Positions 43,667 to 63,892 of a stretch of DNA of 64,000 bases are shown piece by piece. The position numbers were made by a program, and so were the translations under genes. Location: assembly GCA_963799615.1 (NCBI GenBank), contig CAWCXS010000003.1, forward strand, positions 18,250 through 82,249, read 5' to 3'. Origin of the DNA: an uncultured Gaiellaceae bacterium. GTDB lineage: Bacteria > Actinomycetota > Thermoleophilia > Gaiellales > Gaiellaceae. The number at the start of each line of letters is the position of its first letter. Within the stretch, counting starts at the first letter, position 1. The notes beneath the pieces are model-generated. The model had not been told where the DNA came from, ran no database searches, and was given only the letters and a program-made list of their open reading frames with translations.

Positions 43667-43748
43667 GCAGGGGTTCCCGAGTGGCCAAAGGGGGCGGGCT
43701 GTAAACCCGCTGGCTCAGCCTTCAGAGGTTCGAATCCTCTCCCCTGCA
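43667..43748 (+). tRNA. tRNA-Tyr(GTA)
   Basis: GCAGGGG/CCCCTGC acceptor stem, GCGGG-CTGTAAA-CCCGC anticodon arm, long variable arm, GGTTCGAATCC. TACAAT -10 at 43652; CCA not encoded. Confidence 0.95.
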
Positions 43749-44585: not shown

Positions 44586-44658
44586 GCCCTCTTAGCTCAG
44601 TTGGTAGAGCACCTCCATGGTAAGGAGGGGGTCGACGGTTCGAGTCCGTCAGAGGGCT
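44586..44658 (+). tRNA. tRNA-Thr(GGT)
   Basis: GCCCTCT/AGAGGGC acceptor stem, CCTCC-ATGGTAA-GGAGG anticodon arm, GGTTCGAGTCC. Confidence 0.95.
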
Positions 44659-47261: not shown

Positions 47262-47598
47262 GTGCCGTTTGCAGCGTCCCCGCTCTACGTCGCCAAGGCG
47301 ACGCTCTTTCGCACGCTCGGGCATCCCGCCCGGGTGCGGATTCTCGAGCTTCTCCGTGACGGGGAGCATTCCGTCGGGGCGCTGCAGGAGGCGCTTGGAT
47401 CTCGATTCCGGCGGTACGTCGCAGCATCTCGCGGCGCTGCGCCGGATCGGCCTCGTCGAGTCGCGCAGGGAGGGAACGAGCGTCTACTACCGCGCTTCCG
47501 ACCCGCAGGTGTTCGCCTTACTCGACGTCGGTCGAGCGCAGATCGCCCGGACGCTTCGCGAGCAGCAGGGGCTGCTCGAGGAGCTCGCGTCGGAGTGA
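47262..47598 (+). CDS. ArsR/SmtB regulator (Rv0081-like position); frameshift near 47397
   Basis: KATLFRTLGHPARVRILELL...SQHLAALRRIGLVESRREGTSVYY. Confidence 0.85.
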
Positions 47599-49552
47599 CC
47601 GTTCTCGTCGTCGGCGGCCTCTGGCCGCGCTCGCGGGCGGCGGCTCTGCTCTGCGCCTCGAGTGCGCGGCTCGCTAGCGGACTCTGGCTCCAGGCCGCTG
47701 GCAGCGCTCGCCTTCGGTGTGGCCGGGCTGTGGGCTCTCTGACTGGACGACACCTGGGGCTCGTCCTTCACGAGCGAGTCTGACGCCGCAGGCTGGGATC
47801 GACGGGCTGACGCGGCGTGTTCCTCGTCACGCTCGCGCTCGTCGCTTGCCCGGCGCTCGTCTACGCCTCGTCGTATGTGCCGCGCACCGACTGCCGGCCG
47901 GGTCACCGGCGTGCTCAGCGCGGCGTTCCTCCTCGCTCTGGTCGGGGTCCTGTGCGCGCGCGACGCGTTGTCGTTCCTCTTCTTCTGGGAGCTGATGACG
48001 CTCGTTCCGGCCGCGATCATCCTCGTCGGCAGCTCGACCGAGGCCGCGCGACACACGGTCTTCACCTACGTCGCGATCACGCATCTCGGCGGCGCTGGGA
48101 CCTGGATCGCCCTGCTCCTGCTCGCCCACGAGGGAGCGATCGGTAACCCGACGGCGCTGAGCCGAGGGCTCCGGCGTCCAGGCGGTGATCGCGGTCGCCG
48201 CGATCGTCGGGTTCGGGACGAAGGCCGGCCTGATGCCGATGCACGCCTGGCTTCCGCGAGCTCACCCGATCGCGCCGGCGTTTATCTCGGCGCTGATGAG
48301 CGGCGTCATGGTCGCGGTCGCCGCCTACGGGCTGATCCGTGTGCTCGTCGACTGGCTCGGCCCCGCCCCCTCCTGGGTCGGGGCGACGATGCTCGTCCTC
48401 GGCGGGCTGTCGGCGCTCGGCGGCATCACCTATGCGCTCTTCCAGCGCGATCTCAAGCGGCTGCTTGCCTACTCGACCGTCGAGCACCTCGGCGTCGTCG
48501 CGCTCGGGCTCGGCGCCTGTCTGCTGCTGCGCCGCCACGGCGCCGACGAGTGGGCCGCGTTCGCGCTCGGCGCCGCGCTCCTGCACATGGTCAACCACGC
48601 GGCGTTCAAGGCGCTTCTGTTTCTCGGCGCCGGCACGTTCGAGCGCGCGACGGGAGCGCTCGAGCTCGATCGCCTCGGCGGCCTGCTGCGGCGGCTGCCG
48701 TGGAGCGGCGGCGCGTTCCTCGTCGGCGCTCTCGCGATCGCCGGGATGCCGCTGCTGAACGGCTTCGCGTCGGAGTGGCTGACGCTGCAGGCGCTCCTCC
48801 ACGTCCCCGCCTACGCCGGGGTCTGGGACGGCACGCTCGGCGCGCTCGCGCTGGCGGCGCTCGCCGCGACGATGGCGATCGCCGTGCTCTGCTTCGTGAA
48901 GGTGATCGGCCTCGTCCTTCTCGGGCCGCCGCGCCGGTCGGCCTGCGCCGAGGCGGTCGAGCCGCCGGCGTCGATGCGCTGGGCGCTCGTCGCCCTCGCA
49001 GGCGCCTGCGTCGTTCTCGGCGCTGTTCCGGGGCTGCTCTTCTCGCGGCTCAGCGGTCTCGCACCCTGGGCCGACGGCGACGATGTCCCGGTCCGTCCCG
49101 GGCTCGAGCTTCCCGGGACGGGGAACCTGCCGACGCTCGGCTTCCTCGTCGTCGTCTGCGGCCTGACCGGGATTCTCTGGCTCGCGCGCGGCAGCCGCCG
49201 CGCCGCGTCAGCCCGACCTGGGCGAGCGGCCAGCCGGTCGAGCCGGCGCTGCTCTGGACGAGCGCCGGGTTCAGCAAGCCGCTCCGGCTCGTGCTCGAAG
49301 CGGTCCTGCGCCGCGAGCGGGAGATCGAGACGACGACGCAGCGGCGGGGTCGTGCAGGAGGTGTCGTACGCGGGGCGGGTGCCGCACCTGATCGACGCCC
49401 ACCTCTACCGGCCCGGTCACCGACGGCGCGCTGCTCGCGGCCGTCGTGGGCACGGCGCCTCCAGAGCGGCCGGCTCGGAACGTACGTCGCTGTATCTGAT
49501 CGGCCTCGTCGTCGTGCTGCTCCTCGCCGTCCGGATCGGTGCGATCGGATGA
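47595..49552 (+). CDS. HyfB/NuoL-like antiporter-type membrane subunit; several frameshifts
   Basis: FLFFWELM, GTKAGLMPMHAWLPRAHP.AP, LLAYSTVEH, NHAAFKALLF, GMPLLNGFASEW, CFVKVIG. Confidence 0.8.
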
Positions 49553-50480
49553 ACGCCGCAGACGGCCATCAGCGGGTGCCGTCCAGGTCGTCGGCGGCGT
49601 CGCGCTCTCGCCGCTCCTCGTCGGCCTGACCCAGCAGGTCAAGGCGCGCCTGCAGGGACGGCGGGGCTCAGGCCCGCTGCAGCCGTACCGCGAGCTGCGC
49701 CGGCTGTGGGGGAAGAGCGGCGTCGACGTCGAGGGCACGACGGTCGTCTACCGGCTCGCTCCGCTGCTCGTCGCGGCCGCGCTGGGCGCCGCGATCCTGC
49801 TCGTCCCGGCGACCGACGCGGCGCCCGGGCTTGGCGTCGGCCACGACGCGCTCGCGCTGGCCGGGCTGCTCGCCCTCGCCCGGCTCGCGATCTGCGCCGC
49901 CGCCTGGGACACCTCGAACGGCTTTGCGCTCCAGGGAGCGAGCCGCGACCTGACGCTGTCGGTGTTCGTCGAGGCGGCGCTCGTCCTCTCGCTCTCGGTC
50001 GCGGCGCTCGTCGCCGGCACGACCGACCTGCGCGGCATCGTCGCCGGCACCGCCGGCGGCCAACCCTGGACGACGCCGGCGCTCGGGCTGGCGGCGGTCG
50101 CTTTCGCGCTCGTCGTGGTCGCCGAGACGGGACGGCAGCCGGTCGACAACCCCGACACGCATCTCGAGCTGACGATGATCCACGAGGGGCCCGTGCTCGA
50201 GTTCGCGGGCCGCGACCAGGCGTTGCTCCAGTGGGCGCTCGCTGCCCGCCACTGGCTCGTGCTCGTGCTCGCCGCCGCGATCTTCCTGCCGCATCCCGAC
50301 GGCGCCTGGTGGCAGCTGGCGCTCCTTCCGGTCGTCGCTCGCCGCTGCTCTGTGTCCTGCTCGCCGTCGTCCGAGACGCTCGTCGCGAAGATGCGGATCC
50401 TGCTCGTTCCGCGGCTGATCGGGGTCGGGGCAGCGGTCGCGTTGCTCGGCATCGTCACCTGGCTGGTGGACGCCCTGTGA
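49549..50480 (+). CDS. HyfC/HycD (NuoH-like) membrane subunit; frameshifted
   Basis: KARLQGRRG..PLQPYRE, AETGRQPVD, ELTMIHE...LEFAG. Confidence 0.8.
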
Positions 50481-51083
50481 ACGGCGTCGCCTGGGCCATC
50501 GTCGCGCTCGGGATCGGCGTCGTCGTCGTCCGCCGCCGCTCGATCGCGGTCGGGTTCGTCACGGCGCAGGCGCTCCTGCTCGCCGGCGCTGCGTTCAGCG
50601 AGGGCGGCTCGCTCGACGCCGCGGTCGCGGCGGCGGCGCTCGCGCTCCGCGGCGCGGTGCTCGCCGGCGCTGTTCCTCTTCCTCGTCCGTCGAACGCGGG
50701 AGACGAGGCCGGTGCGGGCCGGAGTGGCGCCGCTCGCCCGCGCCGCAGCCGCGGTCGCTCTGGCGCTGGCGCTGATCTGGCTGATCCCGCCGATCGGGCT
50801 CGACTCGCAGGCGGCCGAGCGGGCGACGCTGACGCTCGTCGCGTTCGGCCTCGTCACGGCGGCGACGCGCCGCGCGACGCTCTTCCAGGTGCTCGGGATC
50901 GTGCTCGTCGAGAACGGGCTCGCGCTCGCAGCGCTCGTCGCTGCCCGGCTCGTCATCGCTCGCGATCGAGGTCGGCGTCGCGGTCGACCTGCTGCTGATC
51001 GCGCTCGTCGCGGGCGTCTTCCACGAGCGGATCTTCGCCGAGTTCGGCGCCGGCGACTCCGCCGCGCTGAGGAGCCTCCGTGA
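50477..51083 (+). CDS. HyfE-like membrane subunit; frameshifted
   Basis: Small hydrophobic ORF with QVLGIVLVENG. Confidence 0.7.
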
Positions 51084-52546
51084 CAGCTAGAGAATGGCTC
51101 GCGACCGCCGTGCTCGTGGCGCCCCTCGTCGGCGTCGCCGCCGCAGTCGTCGCGCCGTCGCGCCTCCTCGTTCGGGCGGAGTCGGCGATCGCCGCTTCTC
51201 ACGGCGGCCGCAGCCGCCGCGCTCGCGGTCGTCGCCCTCGCCGAGCCCGGCGAGCGCGAGCTCGGGCGCTGGATCGTCGTCGATCCGGCCGGCGGGCTGC
51301 TCGTCGGCGTGATCGGCGCCATCGGCCTCGCGAGCGCGCTCGTCTCGCCGCAGCTACCTGGCCGGTCGGCGCGGATCGCTGTTCCGAGCCGACCGGGCCG
51401 ACCGGATCTACTGGGCGACGCTGTTCGCGTTCTGGGCCGTCCTGCTCGCCGTTCCGCTCGCCGGGAACCTCGGCGCCGCCTGGCTCGCGATCGAGGCGAC
51501 GACCGCGGCCTCGGCGCTGCTCGTCGGCTTCAGCGGCCGCGCCCGGGCGCTCGAGGCCGGCTGGAAGTACCTCATCCTGACCTCGCTCGGGCTCGGTGTC
51601 GCGCTGCTCGGGATCCTCGTCCTCGAGGCGGCGGCGGGCGGCGGCGGGCTCGAGACCCTGACCTGGCGTTCGCTGCCGCACGCCTCGCTCGATCCGGAGA
51701 CGACGGTCGTCGCCTACGTGCTGCTGCTCGCCGGACTCGCGGCCAAGATCGGCTGGGCGCCCGTGCACAACTGGCTGCCCGACGCCCACTCCGAGGCGCC
51801 GGCGCCGGTCTCGGCGCTCCTCTCGGCCGCGCTCCTGCCCGGCGGTGCTGCTCGTCGCCTGGCGCTCGCAGCAGGCGCTCGCGCCGACGATCGGCGAGCG
51901 CACCGCGGGCGGCGTGCTCGTCGGCTTCGGCCTCGTCTCGCTCGCCGTCGCGGTCCCGTTCCTCTGGCGCTCGCAGGCCTGGAAGCGGCTCCTCGCCTAC
52001 TCGAGCCTCGAGCACATGGGCGTGATCGCGCTCGGGATCGGCTTCGGCGGCCCGCTCGCGCTCGCCGGCGTCGCGATCCACATCGTCGGGCACGCGCTCG
52101 CCAAGGCGCTCGGCTTCTACGCGGCGACGCCGCTCCTCGCCCACGACCCGCGCGCCGCTGGCCACGCGGTCGGCGGGATCGGCAGGACGCAGCCCGCGCT
52201 CGGCGCCTCGCTCGGCATCTCGCTCGGAGCACTCGCCGGGCTGCCGCCGTCGCCGCTCTTCGTCAGCGAGGTGCTGATCGTCGCGGGCGGCTTCCAGGTC
52301 GGTCGCCCCTGGGCTGCGGCGGCGGCGGCGATCCTGCTCGCGCTCGGGTTCCTCGGGCTCGCCCACGCGCTCATCGACACGGTGGTCGGAAGGCCCCGCG
52401 GACGCGATCGCCACGCAGCTCTCGGCCTCCGCGCCGTGACGACGCTGACGGCCGTCGCGGTGCCGCTCCTGCTCGCGCTCACCGCCGCCGCGCTCTGGCT
52501 GCCCGACTCGGCGATCGTCGACGGCCTCGAGCGGGGGCTCGGATGA
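51080..52546 (+). CDS. HyfF-like antiporter-type subunit; frameshifted
   Basis: IEATT, LEAGWKY, KIGWAPVHNWLPDAHSEAPAP, KRLLAYSSLEHMG, GLPPSPLFVSE. Confidence 0.8.
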
Positions 52547-53965
52547 GCAGCCTCGCTCTCAGCGCGGAGCCGAGTACCGCGAGGCGATCGCGGCTGCGCT
52601 CGCCGACGGCTGGCGCTTCGCGAGCCTGCACGCCACGACGCGACGGCGGGCGCCCGGCGGTGCGGACGCTGCTCGCCTCGCCGGCGGGCGAGCTCCGGCT
52701 CGAGAGGGTCGACGCGGCGCGGCGGTGTCGGTGCCGACGATCGTCGACCTCGCTCCTGCCGCCGGCTGGGACGAGCGCGAGGCACACGACCTCTACGGCG
52801 TCGGCTTCGACGGCCACGAGCCGCTCCGGCCGCTCGTCGACCACGACGTGCCCCTCGGCCGATTCGCGACGCCCGTGCGCGGGCCCGATCCGTACCAGGT
52901 CGCGGTCGGGCCGATCCACGCCGGCGTGATCGAGTCCGGCCACTTCCGCTTCCACGTCGTCGGCGACCTGATCCTGCACGTCGACGCGCGCCTGTTCTAC
53001 AAGCACCGCGGCCTCGAGCGGGCGGCCGAAGGGCTCGCCGCTCGCCGACGGCCTGCCGGTCGTCGCACGCGCCTGCGCCGGCTGCTGGGTCACGAACGCC
53101 GTCGCCTACGCGCACGCATGCGAGGAGGCTGCTCGGCCTCGTGCCCGACGCCCGAGCTCGCGCGGGCACGAACGATCCTGCTCGAGCTCGAACGCGTCTG
53201 GAACACCCTCAACGACATCGCGCGCGATCTGCGCCGGCGTCGGCCTCGCCGCCGGCACGAGCCGCTTCGCCGCGCTCGTCGACGACGCCCGGCGACTGAA
53301 CGCCCGGCTGACCGGACACCGATTCCTGTTCGGATCGGTCGACGGTCGGAGGCAGCGGCCTCGATCTCGACGAGGCGAGCGGTGGCCGACGCGCGCGACG
53401 ACGCTCGCGCGGATCCGGCGCGACTCGTCACGCGCCTGGCACGCACTCCTCTTCAACGGCTCGTTCATGGACCGGATGCCCGACATCGGCGTCGTCGACG
53501 CCGCAGCCGTCGCGACGCTCGGAGTCGTCGGCGTCGCGGCCCGCGCGGCCGGCGTCGCCGAGGACGTCCGCGCGACCAGCCCGCGGCTCGCCTACGAGGG
53601 CTTCGAGCCGGCGACGCTCCGGCGCCCCGCCGGCGACGTCCAGGCCCGACTCGAGCAGCGAGCCCTCGAGCTCCTGCCCTGCCTCGACATCCTCGACCGC
53701 CTGCTTGCCGACCCCGTCCGACCCTCCGCAGCCGTCGCAGCCGCCGCCGAGACGGCGATCGGCATCGGCCGCGTCGAGAGCCCGCGCGGCGCGACCATCG
53801 TGCATCGTCGAGCGCGACGGCGACCGCGTCGGCCGGGTCCGGCTCCGAACCGGCTCGTACGCGAACTGGCCCGCCGTCGCCTTCGCCGCAGCCGGCAACC
53901 TCCTGCCCGACTTCCCGCTCATCAACAAGAGCTTCGAGCTCTGCTACGCCTGCGTGGACCGCTGA
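52543..53965 (+). CDS. HycE/HyfG-like large subunit (NuoC+NuoD fusion) retaining N- and C-terminal CxxC; frameshifted
   Basis: WDEREAHDLYG, VGPIHAGVIESGHFRF, YKHRGLE, RACAGC, LELER, VESPRG, DFPLINKSFELCYACVDR-stop. Confidence 0.82.
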
Positions 53966-54429
53966 TGCTGACGCTCCTCCGCGATCTCAGAAAGCTCCGC
54001 CGCGCGATCGGCCTGCCAGCAGCCGAACGCACAGGCTCGCTCGCGATCCGCCACGTCGACTGCGGCTCCTGCAACGGCTGCGAGCACGAGCTCACGCTCG
54101 TCTCCGGGCCCGACCGTCGACATCGCCCGCTTCGGACTCGGCATCGTCGCCTCGCCCCGCCACGCCGACGTCCTGCTCGTCACCGGACCCGTGACGACCC
54201 GGATGCGCGTCGGCGCTCCTCACCGCCTACGAGGCGATGCCCGAGCCACGCCGCGTCGCCGCGCTCGGAGACTGCGCCCTCGGCAGCGGCATCCTCGGGA
54301 ACCCGAGCGAGATCGTCGGACGGGTCGAGGACGTGCTCCCCGTCGACCTCCGCATCCCCGGCTGCCCACCCGACCCCCGAAGAGATCGCAGCAGCCCTCA
54401 TCGCCCTCATCGACTCGAGTTCAGGCTAG
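53965..54429 (+). CDS. HycG/HyfI (NuoB-like) small Fe-S subunit; frameshifted
   Basis: DCGSCNGCE, ASPRHADVLLVTGP, GDCA, PGCPP. TGATG coupling with the large subunit. Confidence 0.85.
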   Translation: MLTLLRDLRKLRRAIGLPAAERTGSLAIRHVDCGSCNGCEHELTLVSGPDRRHRPLRTRHRRLAPPRRRPARHRTRDDPDARRRSSPPTRRCPSHAASPRSETAPSAAASSGTRARSSDGSRTCSPSTSASPAAHPTPEEIAAALIALIDSSSG

Positions 54430-56711: not shown

Positions 56712-57290
56712 ATGTTCCAGATCCGCATCCACGGGCGTGGTGGCCAGGGCGTCGTCACGGCGGCCGAGCTTCTGTCGGTCGCCGCCTTCGAGGAGGGAAG
56801 CTTCGCCCAGGCGTTCCCCACCTTCGGATCGGAGCGCACCGGCGCTCCCGTCGTCTCCTACTGCCGGATCGACGACCGTGAGATCCGCGTCCGCGAGCCG
56901 ATCGGCGAGCCGGACGCGCTCATCATCCAGGACCCGACGCTCCTCCACCAGGTCGATGTCTTCAGCGGTGTCGCGCCCGGCGCCTACGTCCTGATCAACA
57001 CGTCGGGAACCGTCGCGACCCTGGGCATCGAGGACTATGCACAGCGCTTCTCCGCCGGCCACATCCTGACCGTTCCCGCCAGCGAGATCGCGCGGGAGCA
57101 CCTGGGGCGGCCGCTCGCCAATGCCGCCTTGCTCGGCGGCTTCGCTGCGATGACGGGGGTCGTGTCGCTGGCGGGAGTCGCCGCGGCGATTCGCGAGCGC
57201 TTTCCAGCGGCGATCGCCGACGGGAACATCGCCGCCGCCACAGCGGCGCACGCGTTCGTCGTCGAGCTCGTCGGAGCTGTCAATGCGTAG
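56712..57290 (+). CDS. 2-oxoacid (pyruvate-type):ferredoxin oxidoreductase gamma subunit
   Basis: [32 protein letters not shown]. Confidence 0.93.
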
Positions 57291-58544
57291 CCAGATCGAA
57301 GGATCGCAGGCGGTTGCTCGGGCCGTGGCGCTCTGCCGGCCGGAGGTGATCTCCGCCTACCCGATCTCGCCGCAGACCCATATCGTCGAGGCGCTCTCCG
57401 ACGCGGTCCGCTCCGGCGAGCTCGCCCCGTGCGAGTACCTGATGGTCGAGTCGGAGTTCTCGGCGATGTCGGCTGCGATCGGTGCCTCGGCGACGGGCGC
57501 GCGGGCCTACACGGCCACCGCGAGCCAGGGGCTCCTCTTCATGGCGGAGGCGCTGTACAACGCGTCCGGCCTCGGGCTTCCGATCGTGATGACGGTCGCC
57601 AACCGCGCAATCGGCGCGCCGATCAACATCTGGAACGACCACACGGACGCGATGTCGCAGCGGGACTGCGGCTGGATCCAGCTCTACGCGGAGTCGAACC
57701 AGGAGGCGCTCGACCTCCACATCCAGGCGTTCAGGCTGGCGGAGGAGCTCTCCGTGCCCGTGATGGTCTGCATGGACGGCTTCATCCTCACGCACGCGTT
57801 CGAGCCCGTCGACGTGCCGACGCAGGAGCAGGTCGACGCATTTCTCCCGCCGTACGAGCCGCGCCAGGTCCTCGACGCAGACGCACCGCTGACGATCGGC
57901 GCGATGGTCGGGCCCGAGGCGTACACCGAGGTGCGCTACCTGGCGCACGCGATGCAGGTGCAGGCGCTCGATCTGATCCCGGAGATCGCCGCCGAGTTCG
58001 AGGCGCTCGTTCGGCCGCCCCTCCGGCGGGCTCGTCCACCCCTACCGATCAGATGACGCCGACACGGTTGTCGTCGCGCTCGGATCGGTGATCGGGACGA
58101 TCCAGGATGTCGTCGACGAGCTCCGCGACGCCGGATGTGAGCGTCGGCGCTCTGGGAATCGGCTGCTTCCGCCCCTGGCCGGCAGACGAGATCCGGAGCG
58201 CGCTCGCGAGCGCGAAGCAGGTGATCGTGATCGAGAAGGCGTTCGCGGTCGGGGCGGGCGGCATCGTGGGCCAGAACGTTCGCCTCGCGCTCTCCGGCCT
58301 GCCCGTGCCCGTCTACGACGTCGTCGCCGGGCTGGGCGGCCGGGCGATCACGAAGCGCTCGCTCCACTCCCTCGTCGGCGATGTGCTCGCGGGCCGGATC
58401 GAGCCGAATCGGCTCACATTCCTCGATCTGGATCACGGTCTCGTCGAGCGCGAGCTGCACCGCCAGAAGTACCAGCGACGGTCTGGCCCGCACGCCGAGA
58501 ACCTCCTGCGAGACCTCGGCGTCGTGCGGGCCGGAGCCCACTGA
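57283..58544 (+). CDS. 2-oxoacid:ferredoxin oxidoreductase alpha subunit; frameshifts near 58010 and 58130
   Basis: [47 protein letters not shown]. Confidence 0.9.
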
Positions 58545-58555
58545 GGAGCGACGAG

Positions 58556-59560
58556 ATGGCCTATCAACCAGTCAAGTTCTTCCAGGTCGGGAGCTTCGCC
58601 GCCGGCAACCGCCTGCTCGACGCCGGACGCTCGCACCGTGCAGGCACGGGACGGGCGCTCCAACACGCTGACCTTCGGCCACCGCGCCTGCCAGGGATGC
58701 GGCGAGGCGCTGGGCGCGAGATACGCGCTCGACGCTGCGATGCGGGCGACGAACGGACGCCTGATCGCAGCGAACGCCACCGGCTGCCTCGAGGTCTTCT
58801 CGACGCCCGTATCCGGAGTCGTCCTGGCAGCTGCCCTGGATCCATTCGCTGTTCGCGAATGCTCCCGCCGTCGCCACGGGCATCGCGGCGGCGCTCAAGG
58901 TCAAGGGACGCGACGAGCGCGTCGTCGCGCAGGGCGGTGACGGCGCCACGGTCGACATCGGCTTCGGCGCCCTCTCCGGGATGTTCGAGCGCGGCGACGA
59001 CGTGCTCTACATCTGTTACGACAACGAGGCCTACATGAACACGGGCGTGCAGCGCTCGGGCGCGACACCTCCCGGCGGCGCGGACCGCCAACACGAAGCC
59101 GACCGAGAGCGATCCGGGCAACGAGTTCGGCCAGGGAAAGAGCGTGCCGTTGATCGCGATGGCGCACGAGATCCCGTACGTCGCGACCGCGACCGTTGCC
59201 GACCTGCACGACCTCGAGGCAAAGGTCGAGCGCGCCATGGGCATGCACGGCCCGCGCTACCTCCACATCCTCGTCCCGTGCCCGCTCGGCTGGGGAGCAG
59301 ACCCGGCAGACACGATCCTGCTTGCCCGGCTCGCAAAGGAGTCCGGCCTCTTCCCGGTCTTCGAGGCGGAGCACGGTGAGATCACGGCTGTCTCGAAGAT
59401 CCGCCGGCAGGTGCCCGTCGAGGAGTATCTCCGGCCCCAACGCCGATTCGCCCACCTGTTCGGCAAGCAGCCCCGCCCCGACATCGTGGAGCGCCTGCAG
59501 GCGATCGCCGACCGCAACATCCGGCGGTTCGGGCTCCTGCCCACGGAGGAGACGCCATGA
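58556..59560 (+). CDS. 2-oxoacid:ferredoxin oxidoreductase beta (TPP) subunit; frameshifted
   Basis: [43 protein letters not shown]. Confidence 0.9.
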
Positions 59561-61195
59561 CGAACAAGCCGTTCGCGATCACGCTCGAGGTCGGCTCGAG
59601 CCGCGCCAACAAGACCGGCACGTGGCGCACCGAGCGCCCGGTCTACGTCGACCGGATGCCGCCCTGCAACACCGCCTGCCCCGCCGGCGAGAACATCCAG
59701 TCATGGCTGTACGAGGCGGAGGAGGGCGGCGACGGCTACGAGCGGGCGTGGCGGAAGATCATGGAGGAGAACCCGTTCCCCGCGATCATGGGCCGGGTCT
59801 GTTACCACACCTGCGAGACCGCCTGCAATCGGGCGACGCTCGACGAGGCCGTCGGAATCAACGAGGTCGAGCGCTTCCTCGGTGACCTCGCGATCGAGAA
59901 GGGCTGGAGCGTCTCGGTCGAGGCAGCGCCAAGTGGGAAGCGCGTGCTGGTCGTCGGCGCCGGCCCGTGCGGGCTCTCGGCCGCCTATCACCTGGCACGC
60001 CTCGGCCACGAGGTGACAGTCCGCGACGCCGGCGCCAGGGCCGGCGGGATGATGAGATTCGGGATCCCGCGCTACCGCCTTCCTCGCGAGATCCTCGACG
60101 CCGAGATCGCCCGCATCGAGGCACTCGGTGTTCGGATCGAGCTCGAGACCCACGTGACCGACGCCCTCGGCGCGATGCGCGACGGCGGCTTCGACGCCGT
60201 CTTCGTCGCCGTCGGCGCCCAGATCGGCAAGCGCGCCTATGTCCCGGCAGGTGAGGCAGCGCACATCGTCGACGCCGTCACCCTGCTGCGCAGCATGGAA
60301 GGCGAGGAGCGCCCCACGCTCGGCCGCCGCGTTGCGGTGTACGGCGGCGGCAACACCGCGATGGACGCCGCCCGCACCGCGCGGCGTCTCGGCGCCGAGG
60401 AAGCGATCGTGATCTACCGTCGTACCCGCGACCGGATGCCTGCTCACGACTTCGAGGTCGAAGAGGCAGAGGACGAGGGAATCAAGATGAAGTGGCTCTC
60501 GACCGTCAAGCACGCCGACGGCGGCAAGCTCGTGCTCGAGCGGATGGAGCTCGACGAGGCCGGCTTCCCGCAACCGACCGGCGAGCTCGAGGAGCTCGAG
60601 GCCGACTCGCTCGTGCTTGCCCTTGGCCAGGAAGCGGACGTTTCCCTGCTCGACGTCGTCCCTGACGTCGTGATCGACGACCGCGTCGTCGAGGTCGATG
60701 CCGGCTTCATGACCGGGCCATCCCGGCGTCTTCGCCGGCGGCGACATCGTCCGCGCCGAGCGCACCGTGACGGTCGGCGTCGGACACGGCAAACTGGCTG
60801 CACGCTCGATCGACGCCTGGCTCCGCGAGCAGACGCCCGCCCCTGCACTCGCGGCTAGCCCGGCGACCTTCGAGCAGCTCAATACGTGGTACTACGCGGA
60901 CGCACCAAGGGCCGCGCAGCCGCTCCTCGAGCTGGCACGGCGGCGATCGACGTTCGAAGAGGTCGTCGGCGGTCTCGACGAGGCCACGGCTCTGCTCGAG
61001 GCGCGCCGCTGCATGTCGTGCGGCAACTGCTTCCACTGCGACAACTGCCTCGCGGTCTGCCCCGACAACGCAGTGCTCAAGGTCGACAACGCGAAGCGTG
61101 CGTACGCGATCGACTACGACTACTGCAAGGGCTGCGGAATCTGCGCAGCGGAATGTCCTTGCGGCGCGATCGAGATGGTCCCCGAGAACGTCTAG
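59557..61195 (+). CDS. GltD/NfnB-like FAD/NAD(P) oxidoreductase fused to a C-terminal 2x[4Fe-4S] ferredoxin (delta-like); frameshift near 60716
   Basis: PPCNTACP, GRVCYHTCETACNR, VGAGPCG, GGGNTAMD, YRR; CFHCDNCLAVCP and CKGCGICAAECP. Confidence 0.88.
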
Positions 61196-62818: not shown

Positions 62819-63892
62819 TCAGCCTCGTGCACCGCCAGTTCCACCGGGACGGCCTGGAGCACGACCTTGAGCGCGTGCGTCTCGGCCGCGGCGGCGAAGA
62901 CGTCGTACGCGGCCTCGGTCTCGGCGAGCGGGAAGTGGTGCGTCGCGAACACCGTCGGGTCGAGCCGGCCGCCCTCGATCAGCTTGAGCAGCGTCGGCGT
63001 CGTGCTGCGTGTCGACGAGACCCGTGGTGATCGTCACGTCGCGGATCCACAGCCTCTCGAGGTGGAGCGTCGCGCACTTGCCGTGCACGCCGACGTTCGC
63101 GACGCGTCCGCCCGGTCGGATCAGCTCGGTGCAGAGCTCGAATGTCTCGCGGCACGCCGACCGCCTCGATCGCGACGTCCGCGCCGAGGCCGCCGGTCAG
63201 CTCCATCACCCGCGCGACCGCGTCCTCGTCGCCGTTGTTGATGATCGACGTCGGCGCCGAACTCGAGCGCCTTCTCGAGCCGGCAGTCGGCGAGGTCGAT
63301 CGCGATGATCCGGCTCGGCGTGTGCAGCTTCGCCGTCATGATCGCGGCGAGGCCGATCGGGCCGGCGCCGACGACCGCGACGGTGTCGCCCGGCTCGACC
63401 CGTCCGTTGAGGACGCCGACCTCGTAGGCCGTCGGGAGGATGTCGGCGAGGAAGAGCACCTGCTCGTCGCTGAGGCCGTCCGGCACCTTGTAGACCGAGG
63501 TGTCGGCGAACGGCACGCGCGCGTACTCGGCCTGGAGGCCGTCGATCAGGTGGCCGAAGATCCAGCCGCCGCCGCCGATGCAGAGGCCGTAGTGGCCTTC
63601 CTTGCAGAAGCGGCAGCGGCCGCAGGCGCTGATGCACGAGACGAGCACCCGGTCGCCCGCGGCGATCGTCGTGACGCGCGGCGCCGATCTCGACGACGGT
63701 GCCGACCGCCTCGTGGCCGAGGATCGTCCCCGGCGTCACCTCGGGGACGTCGCCCTTGAGGATGTGCAGGTCGGTGCCGCAGATCGTCGACGAGTCGATG
63801 CGGACGATCGCGTCGGTCGGATCGATGATCGACGGGTCGGGGACGGACTCCCAGGCTCGCTGGCCGGGGCCGTGGTAGACGAGCGCTTTCAT
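62819..63892 (-). CDS. Zn-dependent alcohol dehydrogenase family; frameshifted
   Basis: MKALVYHGPG, ICGTDLH, GHEAVG, CGRCRFC...C, ADILPT, GAGPIG. Confidence 0.9.

Follow-up and report, generated by a model that had tools for sequence, protein, structure and literature searches.

Can a large subunit that keeps all four potential nickel-ligating cysteines of a [NiFe]-hydrogenase belong to a complex that is not a canonical hydrogenase? The question was raised by an operon in a 64,000-nt stretch of DNA (hereafter the window) from an uncultured Gaiellaceae bacterium (GenBank assembly GCA_963799615.1, contig CAWCXS010000003.1, positions 18,250 to 82,249 of the forward strand). Three-frame translation identified an ArsR gene followed by six hydrogenase-4-like genes on the plus strand at 47.1-54.6 kb. 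The source genome, a metagenome-assembled genome (MAG) of 3.57 Mb in 15 contigs, has a guanine-plus-cytosine (GC) content of 68.5% and is 93% complete. Taken as a whole, the explanation that we consider likely is that the locus is the version, in Gaiellales, of a seven-gene operon that is headed by ArsR, is translationally coupled, and encodes a complex-I-like membrane complex with six subunits belonging to the Ehr/"group 4f" family, and that this complex is not a canonical Hyp-matured [NiFe]-hydrogenase, since both active-site histidines are replaced and purifying selection maintains the genes even where the Hyp machinery is missing from the genome.

The residues on which this reading turns lie in the large subunit, where they are numbered 127, 174, 177, 181, 414, 461, and 464 (numbering of P0001):

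52905..52946, plus strand: the VGPIHAGVIESGHF loop with the hydrogenase-type glutamate (E127), which aligns with PIGPLHVTSDEPGHF of HycE
53068..53097, plus strand: the L1 motif RACAGCWVTN, with two cysteines at NiFe-ligand positions and the terminal histidine replaced by asparagine (N181, 53095-53097)
53801..53803, plus strand: a fifth conserved cysteine (C414), in SPRGAT(T/S)C, which replaces the histidine of PRGxxxH (L4)
53921..53965, plus strand: the C-terminal motif INKSFELCYACVDR-stop, with two cysteines at NiFe-ligand positions and no maturation tail

The L1 and C-terminal motifs translated exactly at these positions, as had been read from the DNA in an initial annotation of the window. 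The best sequence match of the large subunit in the PDB was HycE of Escherichia coli (7Z0S_E, E 4.9e-50). In the phmmer alignment against the PDB, the four cysteines matched HycE C241, C244, C531, and C534 column for column, the arginine of the PRG motif was conserved, and the protein terminated at the arginine where HycE undergoes cleavage. An AlphaFold2 model of the subunit (pLDDT 80, pTM 0.86) likewise had HycE as its best fold match (TM 0.81), with fused NuoCD from complex I in second place. Among close homologues, residues C174, C177, N181, C461, and C464 were invariant in an alignment of 58 sequences. The initial annotation had proposed that all four potential nickel ligands are kept, that no cleavable tail is present, and that the L1 histidine is asparagine and the usual DP is EL; the HycE alignment and the homologues bear out each of these statements.

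A family phylogeny was constructed from 163 sequences and rooted on HycE, and it split into two halves. The largely cysteine-bearing half (R.CG.C...H ... ELCY.C.DR) included Desulfosporosinus, Chloroflexi, Negativicutes, and a Thermoleophilia clade. The cysteine-less half (R[IV]SGD ... NLSY[SA]G; support 98) corresponded to the classical Ehr complexes of Nitrospira, ammonia-oxidising archaea, Acidobacteria, and Methanosarcina. The window protein was placed within the Thermoleophilia clade (20 rows; support 100), inside the cysteine-bearing, "group 4f"-like half, and the hydrogenase-type glutamate was found in 162 of the 163 family members. This split agrees with the published closeness of Ehr complexes, which lack the CxxC motifs, to group 4f (PMC10284858, PMC10432482, PMC6349859), and with the report of a group 4f enzyme in Desulfosporosinus orientis (PMC7248197). 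Group 4f itself is biochemically uncharacterised (10.1101/2025.08.29.672306, PMC9431212).

What sets the Thermoleophilia clade apart is the state of the two histidines next to the ligands. Asparagine 181 was found in 17 of its 20 members and cysteine 414 in 19, and the L4 histidine of PRGxxxH is kept in HycE and in 23 of the 36 other four-cysteine members; histidine occurred at both sites in 23 rows. Judged from these alignments, the clade has swapped both active-site histidines, for asparagine in L1 and for cysteine in L4, which places five conserved cysteines in the predicted pocket. This double replacement with its five-cysteine pocket is new here, as is a clade without the ferredoxin domain of many other four-cysteine lineages. 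The same asparagine/cysteine pair was also present in a Selenomonas sequence and in one further lineage (L040, P0191). With three lineages in all, an independent-pairs test of the co-substitution had too few independent events and was underpowered (p ~0.5), and it offers only a hint that the changes at residues 181 and 414 may be coupled at the metal pocket.

Measured against a canonical group 4 hydrogenase, the window protein has four cysteines in the L1 and L5 positions with atypical flanks (asparagine for histidine, EL for DP); both active-site histidines (L1 and PRGxxxH) are missing, and so are HypCDEF in the genome. Specifically, HypC, HypD, and HypF had no match above the cut-off in this 93%-complete genome, and HypE had sub-threshold paralogue matches only. 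Nor was another [NiFe]-hydrogenase (Pfam family PF00374) found in the genome, where frameshifts break the weak match of the operon's own large subunit. The search for hyp genes had been set beforehand as a refuting test of the initial proposal of a cryptic H2-evolving proton pump, and with HypC, HypD, HypE, and HypF absent that proposal is disfavoured. The annotation's alternative, an Ehr complex whose metal site differs, is now to be preferred, and the five-cysteine signature sharpens it.

The absence of Hyp proteins extended beyond this genome. Among 201 Gaiellales genomes that were at least 90% complete, 41 carried the large-subunit gene, and 20 of these carriers lacked HypD. It is implausible that HypD was missed in all 20 through incompleteness, because every genome in the set was at least 90% complete. 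Of the sequences fetched from HypD-less carriers, at least 12 kept all four cysteines, one had lost a cysteine, and three were locally frameshifted; G006, G007, G012, and G015 of a first set likewise kept all four in open frames. In a first sample of 31 genomes, HypD, HypF, and a separate PF00374 hydrogenase co-occurred and adjoined each other on a different contig from the operon (for example, contig C7 versus C5 in the congener G004). Since Hyp genes are absent here, and HypD is absent in 20 of the 41 carriers while the cysteines are kept, it is unlikely that, in roughly half of the carriers, selection maintains the cysteines for the sake of a Hyp-matured Ni-Fe(CN)2CO centre. The host shares its lack of hyp genes with the Mycobacterium tuberculosis complex, whose Ehr complex was judged to be no hydrogenase for want of them (PMC6728331).

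These data bear directly on the possibility that the complex is a genuine group 4f [NiFe]-hydrogenase which evolves or consumes H2 and pumps ions, with Hyp proteins maturing it in genomes that have them and with the enzyme otherwise inactive or matured in another way. We judge this quite unlikely. Such an enzyme would be expected to conserve the four ligand cysteines, the proton-relay glutamate, and the PRG arginine, as observed, and its large subunit, like MbhL of Pyrococcus furiosus, has no tail beyond the mature C-terminus. The placement in the cysteine-bearing half together with Desulfosporosinus, one species of which has a published group 4f enzyme, is in its favor as well, and so is an enrichment of HypD among the carriers. 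However, the operon is retained with its cysteines and under the same purifying selection in a genome that has neither HypC, HypD, HypE, and HypF nor another hydrogenase; 20 of the 41 carriers are without HypD, both conserved active-site histidines are replaced, and the complex has no ferredoxin wire. Additionally, Gaiella occulta, the cultured relative, is an aerobe.

The working model that we consider most probable is a redox-driven module that translocates ions and whose former NiFe pocket is occupied by something not built by Hyp proteins. In the mechanism that we propose, a soluble reductant, possibly ferredoxin, would reduce the small subunit's one [4Fe-4S] cluster, which would hand electrons on to a Hyp-independent site with cysteine ligands in the former NiFe pocket. 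The redox step there would be linked to the passage of ions through the antiporter-like subunits, and a regulator of the Rv0081 type would control the operon. More specifically, the five-cysteine pocket may bind a Hyp-independent metal centre, such as mononuclear nickel or iron or a small Fe-S cluster, that acts as the catalytic site, or the terminal redox site, of a complex which pumps ions in aerobic soil Actinobacteria; in so specific a form the proposal is quite improbable. If true, the five-cysteine centre would add a new type of cofactor to the complex I/hydrogenase superfamily, and would possibly be a Hyp-independent proton reductase.

Alternatively, the cysteines may be structural or regulatory, as a zinc site or redox-sensitive disulfide; the complex would then be a transporter or antiporter of ions, without catalysis in the old NiFe pocket. 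The cysteine-less Ehr half of the tree keeps the same architecture, and single members of the clade have lost cysteines, as would be expected if catalysis did not depend on them. For example, P0125 keeps one cysteine (RTCASSSVAI ... ELSYAAVDR) and G216 (locus L110) keeps three (RACAADHVAH). Read from the sequences, these losses show a drift towards the Ehr state that is apparently continuing. In contrast, the near-invariance of four or five cysteines over a deep clade, together with the retention of the [4Fe-4S] ligands in the small subunit, points to electron transfer into the pocket, and a purely structural or regulatory role is unlikely.

Several observations weigh against the preferred reading of a complex that is not a canonical hydrogenase and carries electrons into a Hyp-independent site. 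HypD was enriched among the carriers, at 21 of 41 versus 46 of the 160 non-carriers (odds ratio 2.6, p 0.009), and in some lineages the complex may be connected with hydrogen metabolism. The strict conservation of the four cysteines, the glutamate, and the PRG arginine is also what a working NiFe site would be expected to display. Nothing in the sequence points to the proposed donor, cofactor, or ion. The reading of the frameshifts as assembly errors, discussed below, draws on the indel spectrum and on selection, both of which are indirect evidence. Finally, the 2-oxoacid:ferredoxin oxidoreductase cluster downstream of the operon gives a hint of ferredoxin as the donor, but this cluster had no counterpart within 10 kb in 83 other loci, and the idea of reading the donor from the gene context was dropped.

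Complexes of the Ehr and group 4f types occur widely, among soil bacteria, nitrifiers, gut anaerobes, and mycobacteria, and no substrate is known for them. The Thermoleophilia clade offers a natural experiment in which the hydrogenase ligands are under selection without NiFe maturation in about half of the carriers, with the two adjacent histidines turned into asparagine and cysteine. Whether the cysteines bind NiFe, something else, or nothing thus becomes directly testable on one purifiable complex. The answer also bears on metagenomic surveys, where it must be decided whether "4f" matches in Hyp-less genomes should count as hydrogenases.

The distribution of the family indicated that the form found in the window is common. 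All 120 of its closest homologues (66-100% identity) ended in NKSFELCYAC(V/A/T)DR, and these included named proteins from Gaiella occulta, Gaiella sp., and "Gaiellales bacterium", which assign the genome to Gaiellales/Thermoleophilia; the large subunits of the cultured G. occulta and the congener G004 are 80% identical. A profile-free scan identified 459 cluster representatives (50% identity) at E <= 1e-30, and relatives were present in at least 597 species genomes from the Actinomycetota, Chloroflexota, Firmicutes, Nitrospirota, Acidobacteriota, and Thaumarchaeota as well as Methanosarcina. The Thermoleophilia clade to which the locus belongs is large and already catalogued, though without biochemical study, and the locus is an unexceptional member of it. 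The form is neither special nor rare, being the standard state of this clade. Its description as an intermediate form holds insofar as the protein belongs to the cysteine-bearing half of the tree and combines this with a minimal, ferredoxin-less Ehr architecture.

That architecture was established on the intact operons of congeners. The whole 7.2-kb operon aligned to those of G004, G008, and G017 at 80-84% nucleotide identity, and the proteins of G004 served as the basis of the Pfam assignments. In the window, the copy is readable solely by repeated frame changes within each gene, and lengths are given net of the apparently spurious insertions:

47262..47598, plus strand: ArsR/SmtB-family regulator, Rv0081-like (HTH_5/HTH_20 on the G004 orthologue), with one apparently spurious +1 insertion near 47399
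47595..49552, plus strand: HyfB/NuoL-like antiporter subunit, ~648 aa minus apparently spurious insertions (Proton_antipo_M, E 4e-42 on G004)
49549..50480, plus strand: HyfC/HycD/NuoH-like membrane subunit, 308 aa in G004 (NADHdh, E 7e-35), where its start overlaps the preceding gene (ATGA)
50477..51090, plus strand: HyfE-like small membrane subunit, ~203 aa, assigned by position and hydrophobic sequence and conserved in relatives
51080..52546, plus strand: HyfF/NuoN-like antiporter subunit, ~487 aa (Proton_antipo_M, E 7e-41)
52543..53965, plus strand: large subunit, a fused NuoC-NuoD/HycE-like protein, ~467 aa (Complex1_30kDa and Complex1_49kDa, with a weak NiFeSe_Hases match)
53965..54429, plus strand: NuoB/HycG-like small subunit, ~154 aa (Oxidored_q6, E 4e-26)

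The HyfE-like 203-aa protein of G004 had no Pfam match. All seven genes of the G004 operon overlap at their junctions (ATGA, GTGA, or TGATG), and the ArsR gene is therefore translationally coupled to the structural genes. In the window, the GTG start of the ArsR gene was picked by homology, and its stop overlaps the next start in a GTGA at 47595-47598. The small subunit has four cysteines for one [4Fe-4S] cluster at 54052-54090, 54264-54287, and 54351-54371, in the motifs HVDCGSCNGCEHE, LGDCALGS, and RIPGCPP. A scan of all frames of the G004 operon and the 1 kb around it found no CxxCxxCxxxC ferredoxin-type motif, and the gene cluster contained no formate dehydrogenase or CO dehydrogenase partner. 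The predicted set of an ArsR gene with HyfB/C/E/F/G/I-like genes and no NuoI/HyfH subunit was recovered by Pfam on G004, by position for the HyfE-like gene, and by the motif scan for the missing ferredoxin subunit.

The absence of a ferredoxin domain distinguished the Thermoleophilia from many of their relatives. In many four-cysteine relatives from Chloroflexi and several Firmicutes (L030-L037, L041, L042, and L048), a CxxCxxCxxxC(P) ferredoxin-type motif was found in the operon, often within a small-subunit open reading frame (ORF) of 240-290 aa. In the 12 intact Thermoleophilia loci, the motif did not occur and the small subunit comprised ~150-190 aa. Several cysteine-less Acidobacteria had similarly long small-subunit ORFs without the motif, which possibly carry a degenerate ferredoxin domain.

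One of the closest known systems is HydDB group 4f (Ehf), a set of putative [NiFe]-hydrogenases represented by Desulfosporosinus orientis Desor_1265-1270, Desulfitobacterium hafniense ACL22288-93, and ehfA-F of Methylocystis. The window complex shares with it the six subunits and a tail-less large subunit with CxxC ... NKSF(E/N)LCYxCxDR-stop, and a Desulfosporosinus orthologue falls in the half of the family tree where the window protein was placed. Unlike group 4f, it has asparagine in L1 and cysteine in L4, its operon is led by ArsR, and it persists in genomes devoid of Hyp genes. It further differs from many group 4f-like members in Chloroflexi and Firmicutes, as the Thermoleophilia loci are without the ferredoxin-type domain.

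The regulator and the gene content resemble those of the mycobacterial Ehr locus Rv0081-Rv0087. The best PDB match of the window ArsR was Rv0081 (6JMI, E 1.5e-22), with the next ArsR protein ten orders of magnitude behind (3e-12). Both loci have a regulator of the Rv0081 type at the head, the same six subunit types, no NuoI/HycF, and an NKSF-type C-terminus. The locus of Mycobacterium lacus was used as a proxy for that of M. tuberculosis, its regulator being 93% identical to Rv0081. Its order is ArsR, small subunit, B, C, E, F, and large subunit, such that the small subunit directly follows ArsR in Mycobacterium while it is last in the window operon. The M. lacus orthologue of Rv0087 (491 aa) is devoid of cysteines, with RISGDTSAAH ... 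ANKSFNQSYAGNDL. Ehr complexes are defined by the loss of the Ni/Fe ligands (NQSYAGNDL in M. lacus), whereas the window protein keeps four cysteines. The match to the M. tuberculosis Ehr locus that was claimed at the outset is consequently supported, by way of this proxy, for the Rv0081-type ArsR and the cysteine-less large subunit of the mycobacterial locus, and it fails for the gene order. In M. lacus (L117 3772-9889), a three-subunit molybdenum hydroxylase or CO-dehydrogenase-like cluster (Fer2, FAD_binding_5, and MoCoBD) and a Na/H-exchanger that has TrkA domains lie ahead of the Ehr locus.

Comparison with better-studied complexes gave a similar mixture of likeness and difference. With hydrogenase 3 of the E. 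coli formate hydrogenlyase (FHL; HycE/HycG, 7Z0S), the window complex shares a fused NuoC/D-like large subunit, the four cysteines, the glutamate, and the PRG arginine. However, RVCGICGFAH, DPC, the histidine of PRGxxxH, and the cleaved tail of HycE are all absent here, as are the HycB and HycF ferredoxin subunits, formate dehydrogenase, the HycI protease, and the adjacent hypA-D genes of the FHL system. The fold and the membrane-arm homologues are shared with the Q-module of complex I (Nqo4/NuoD and Nqo6/NuoB). In contrast to complex I, the operon includes no N-module, NuoI, or NuoEFG module, and the quinone ligands are missing, as Nqo4 His38 aligns to isoleucine and Tyr87 to alanine (phmmer).

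In this assembly, ~13 apparently spurious insertions break the frame of the large-subunit gene. In a four-way alignment of the 7.2-kb operon, the window copy had 36 private insertions of 1-2 nt and one private deletion (sign test p 5.5e-10), and the three relatives had essentially no frame-breaking private indels inside genes. All four bases were inserted, and only nine of the 36 insertions had an identical neighboring base. Once the insertions were dropped, the ratio of nonsynonymous to synonymous substitution rates (dN/dS) against the relatives was 0.13-0.16, compared with 0.14-0.16 among the intact relatives, and the nonsynonymous divergence of the window copy was no higher than theirs. Two apparent in-frame stops were left, each in a gene that also carried an alignment-gap codon. 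Because of the 36:1 indel ratio, the equal dN/dS, and the three intact congeners, the frameshifts are almost certainly insertion errors of the assembly, with the genes predicted to be intact in the organism.

The alternative, that the operon is a decaying pseudogene cluster whose frameshifts are real, is very unlikely. It takes its appeal from ~36 frame-disrupting indels in 7.2 kb, from a frame-switch density in the top ~3% of the 7-kb windows of the genome, and from flanks that are not syntenic with those of relatives and lie 6 GC points below the operon. Decay would leave neither such a lopsided insertion spectrum, which lies mostly outside homopolymers and is unlike natural indel spectra, nor a dN/dS of 0.13 without any nonsynonymous excess. 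Moreover, unrelated neighbors also lose the frame in mid-gene, namely the alpha subunit of the 2-oxoacid:ferredoxin oxidoreductase (58000-58100), a GltD/NfnB-like gene (60800-60860), and an alcohol dehydrogenase gene (63600-63700), and the frame-switch density is raised across the 3' third of the contig (contig C3 63-93 kb). A second MAG of the genus, G017, has its HypD in five pieces in different frames (G017:C8:276172-277229), a further case of an assembly with frameshift errors. A counter based on the phase of GC at third codon positions recorded 32 frame switches in the window operon versus 10-14 in intact orthologues; it is noisy, with ~1.9 switches per kb in clean loci, and is unusable as a genome-wide error rate. 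As a practical caution, patches of insertion errors in this MAG mimic pseudogenes.

The surroundings of the operon differ from those in related genomes. The segment 47236-54414 aligned with the congener loci L011, L012, and L013, while the 4-10 kb flanks were not syntenic, and its GC content was 0.74 versus 0.67-0.68 in the flanks, or ~6 points higher. The failure of the flanks to align and the higher GC content suggest that the operon was relocated or transferred within the genus. An Rfam scan of the window found no riboswitch or other RNA upstream of the operon, its sole matches being two tRNA genes at 43667-43748 and 44586-44658, both on the plus strand and upstream of the operon. The oxidoreductase cluster mentioned above starts 2.3 kb downstream of the operon (56712-60858, plus strand) and encodes a gamma subunit (POR), an alpha subunit (POR_N), and a GltD/NfnB-like protein with Fer4_20 and Pyr_redox_2 domains.

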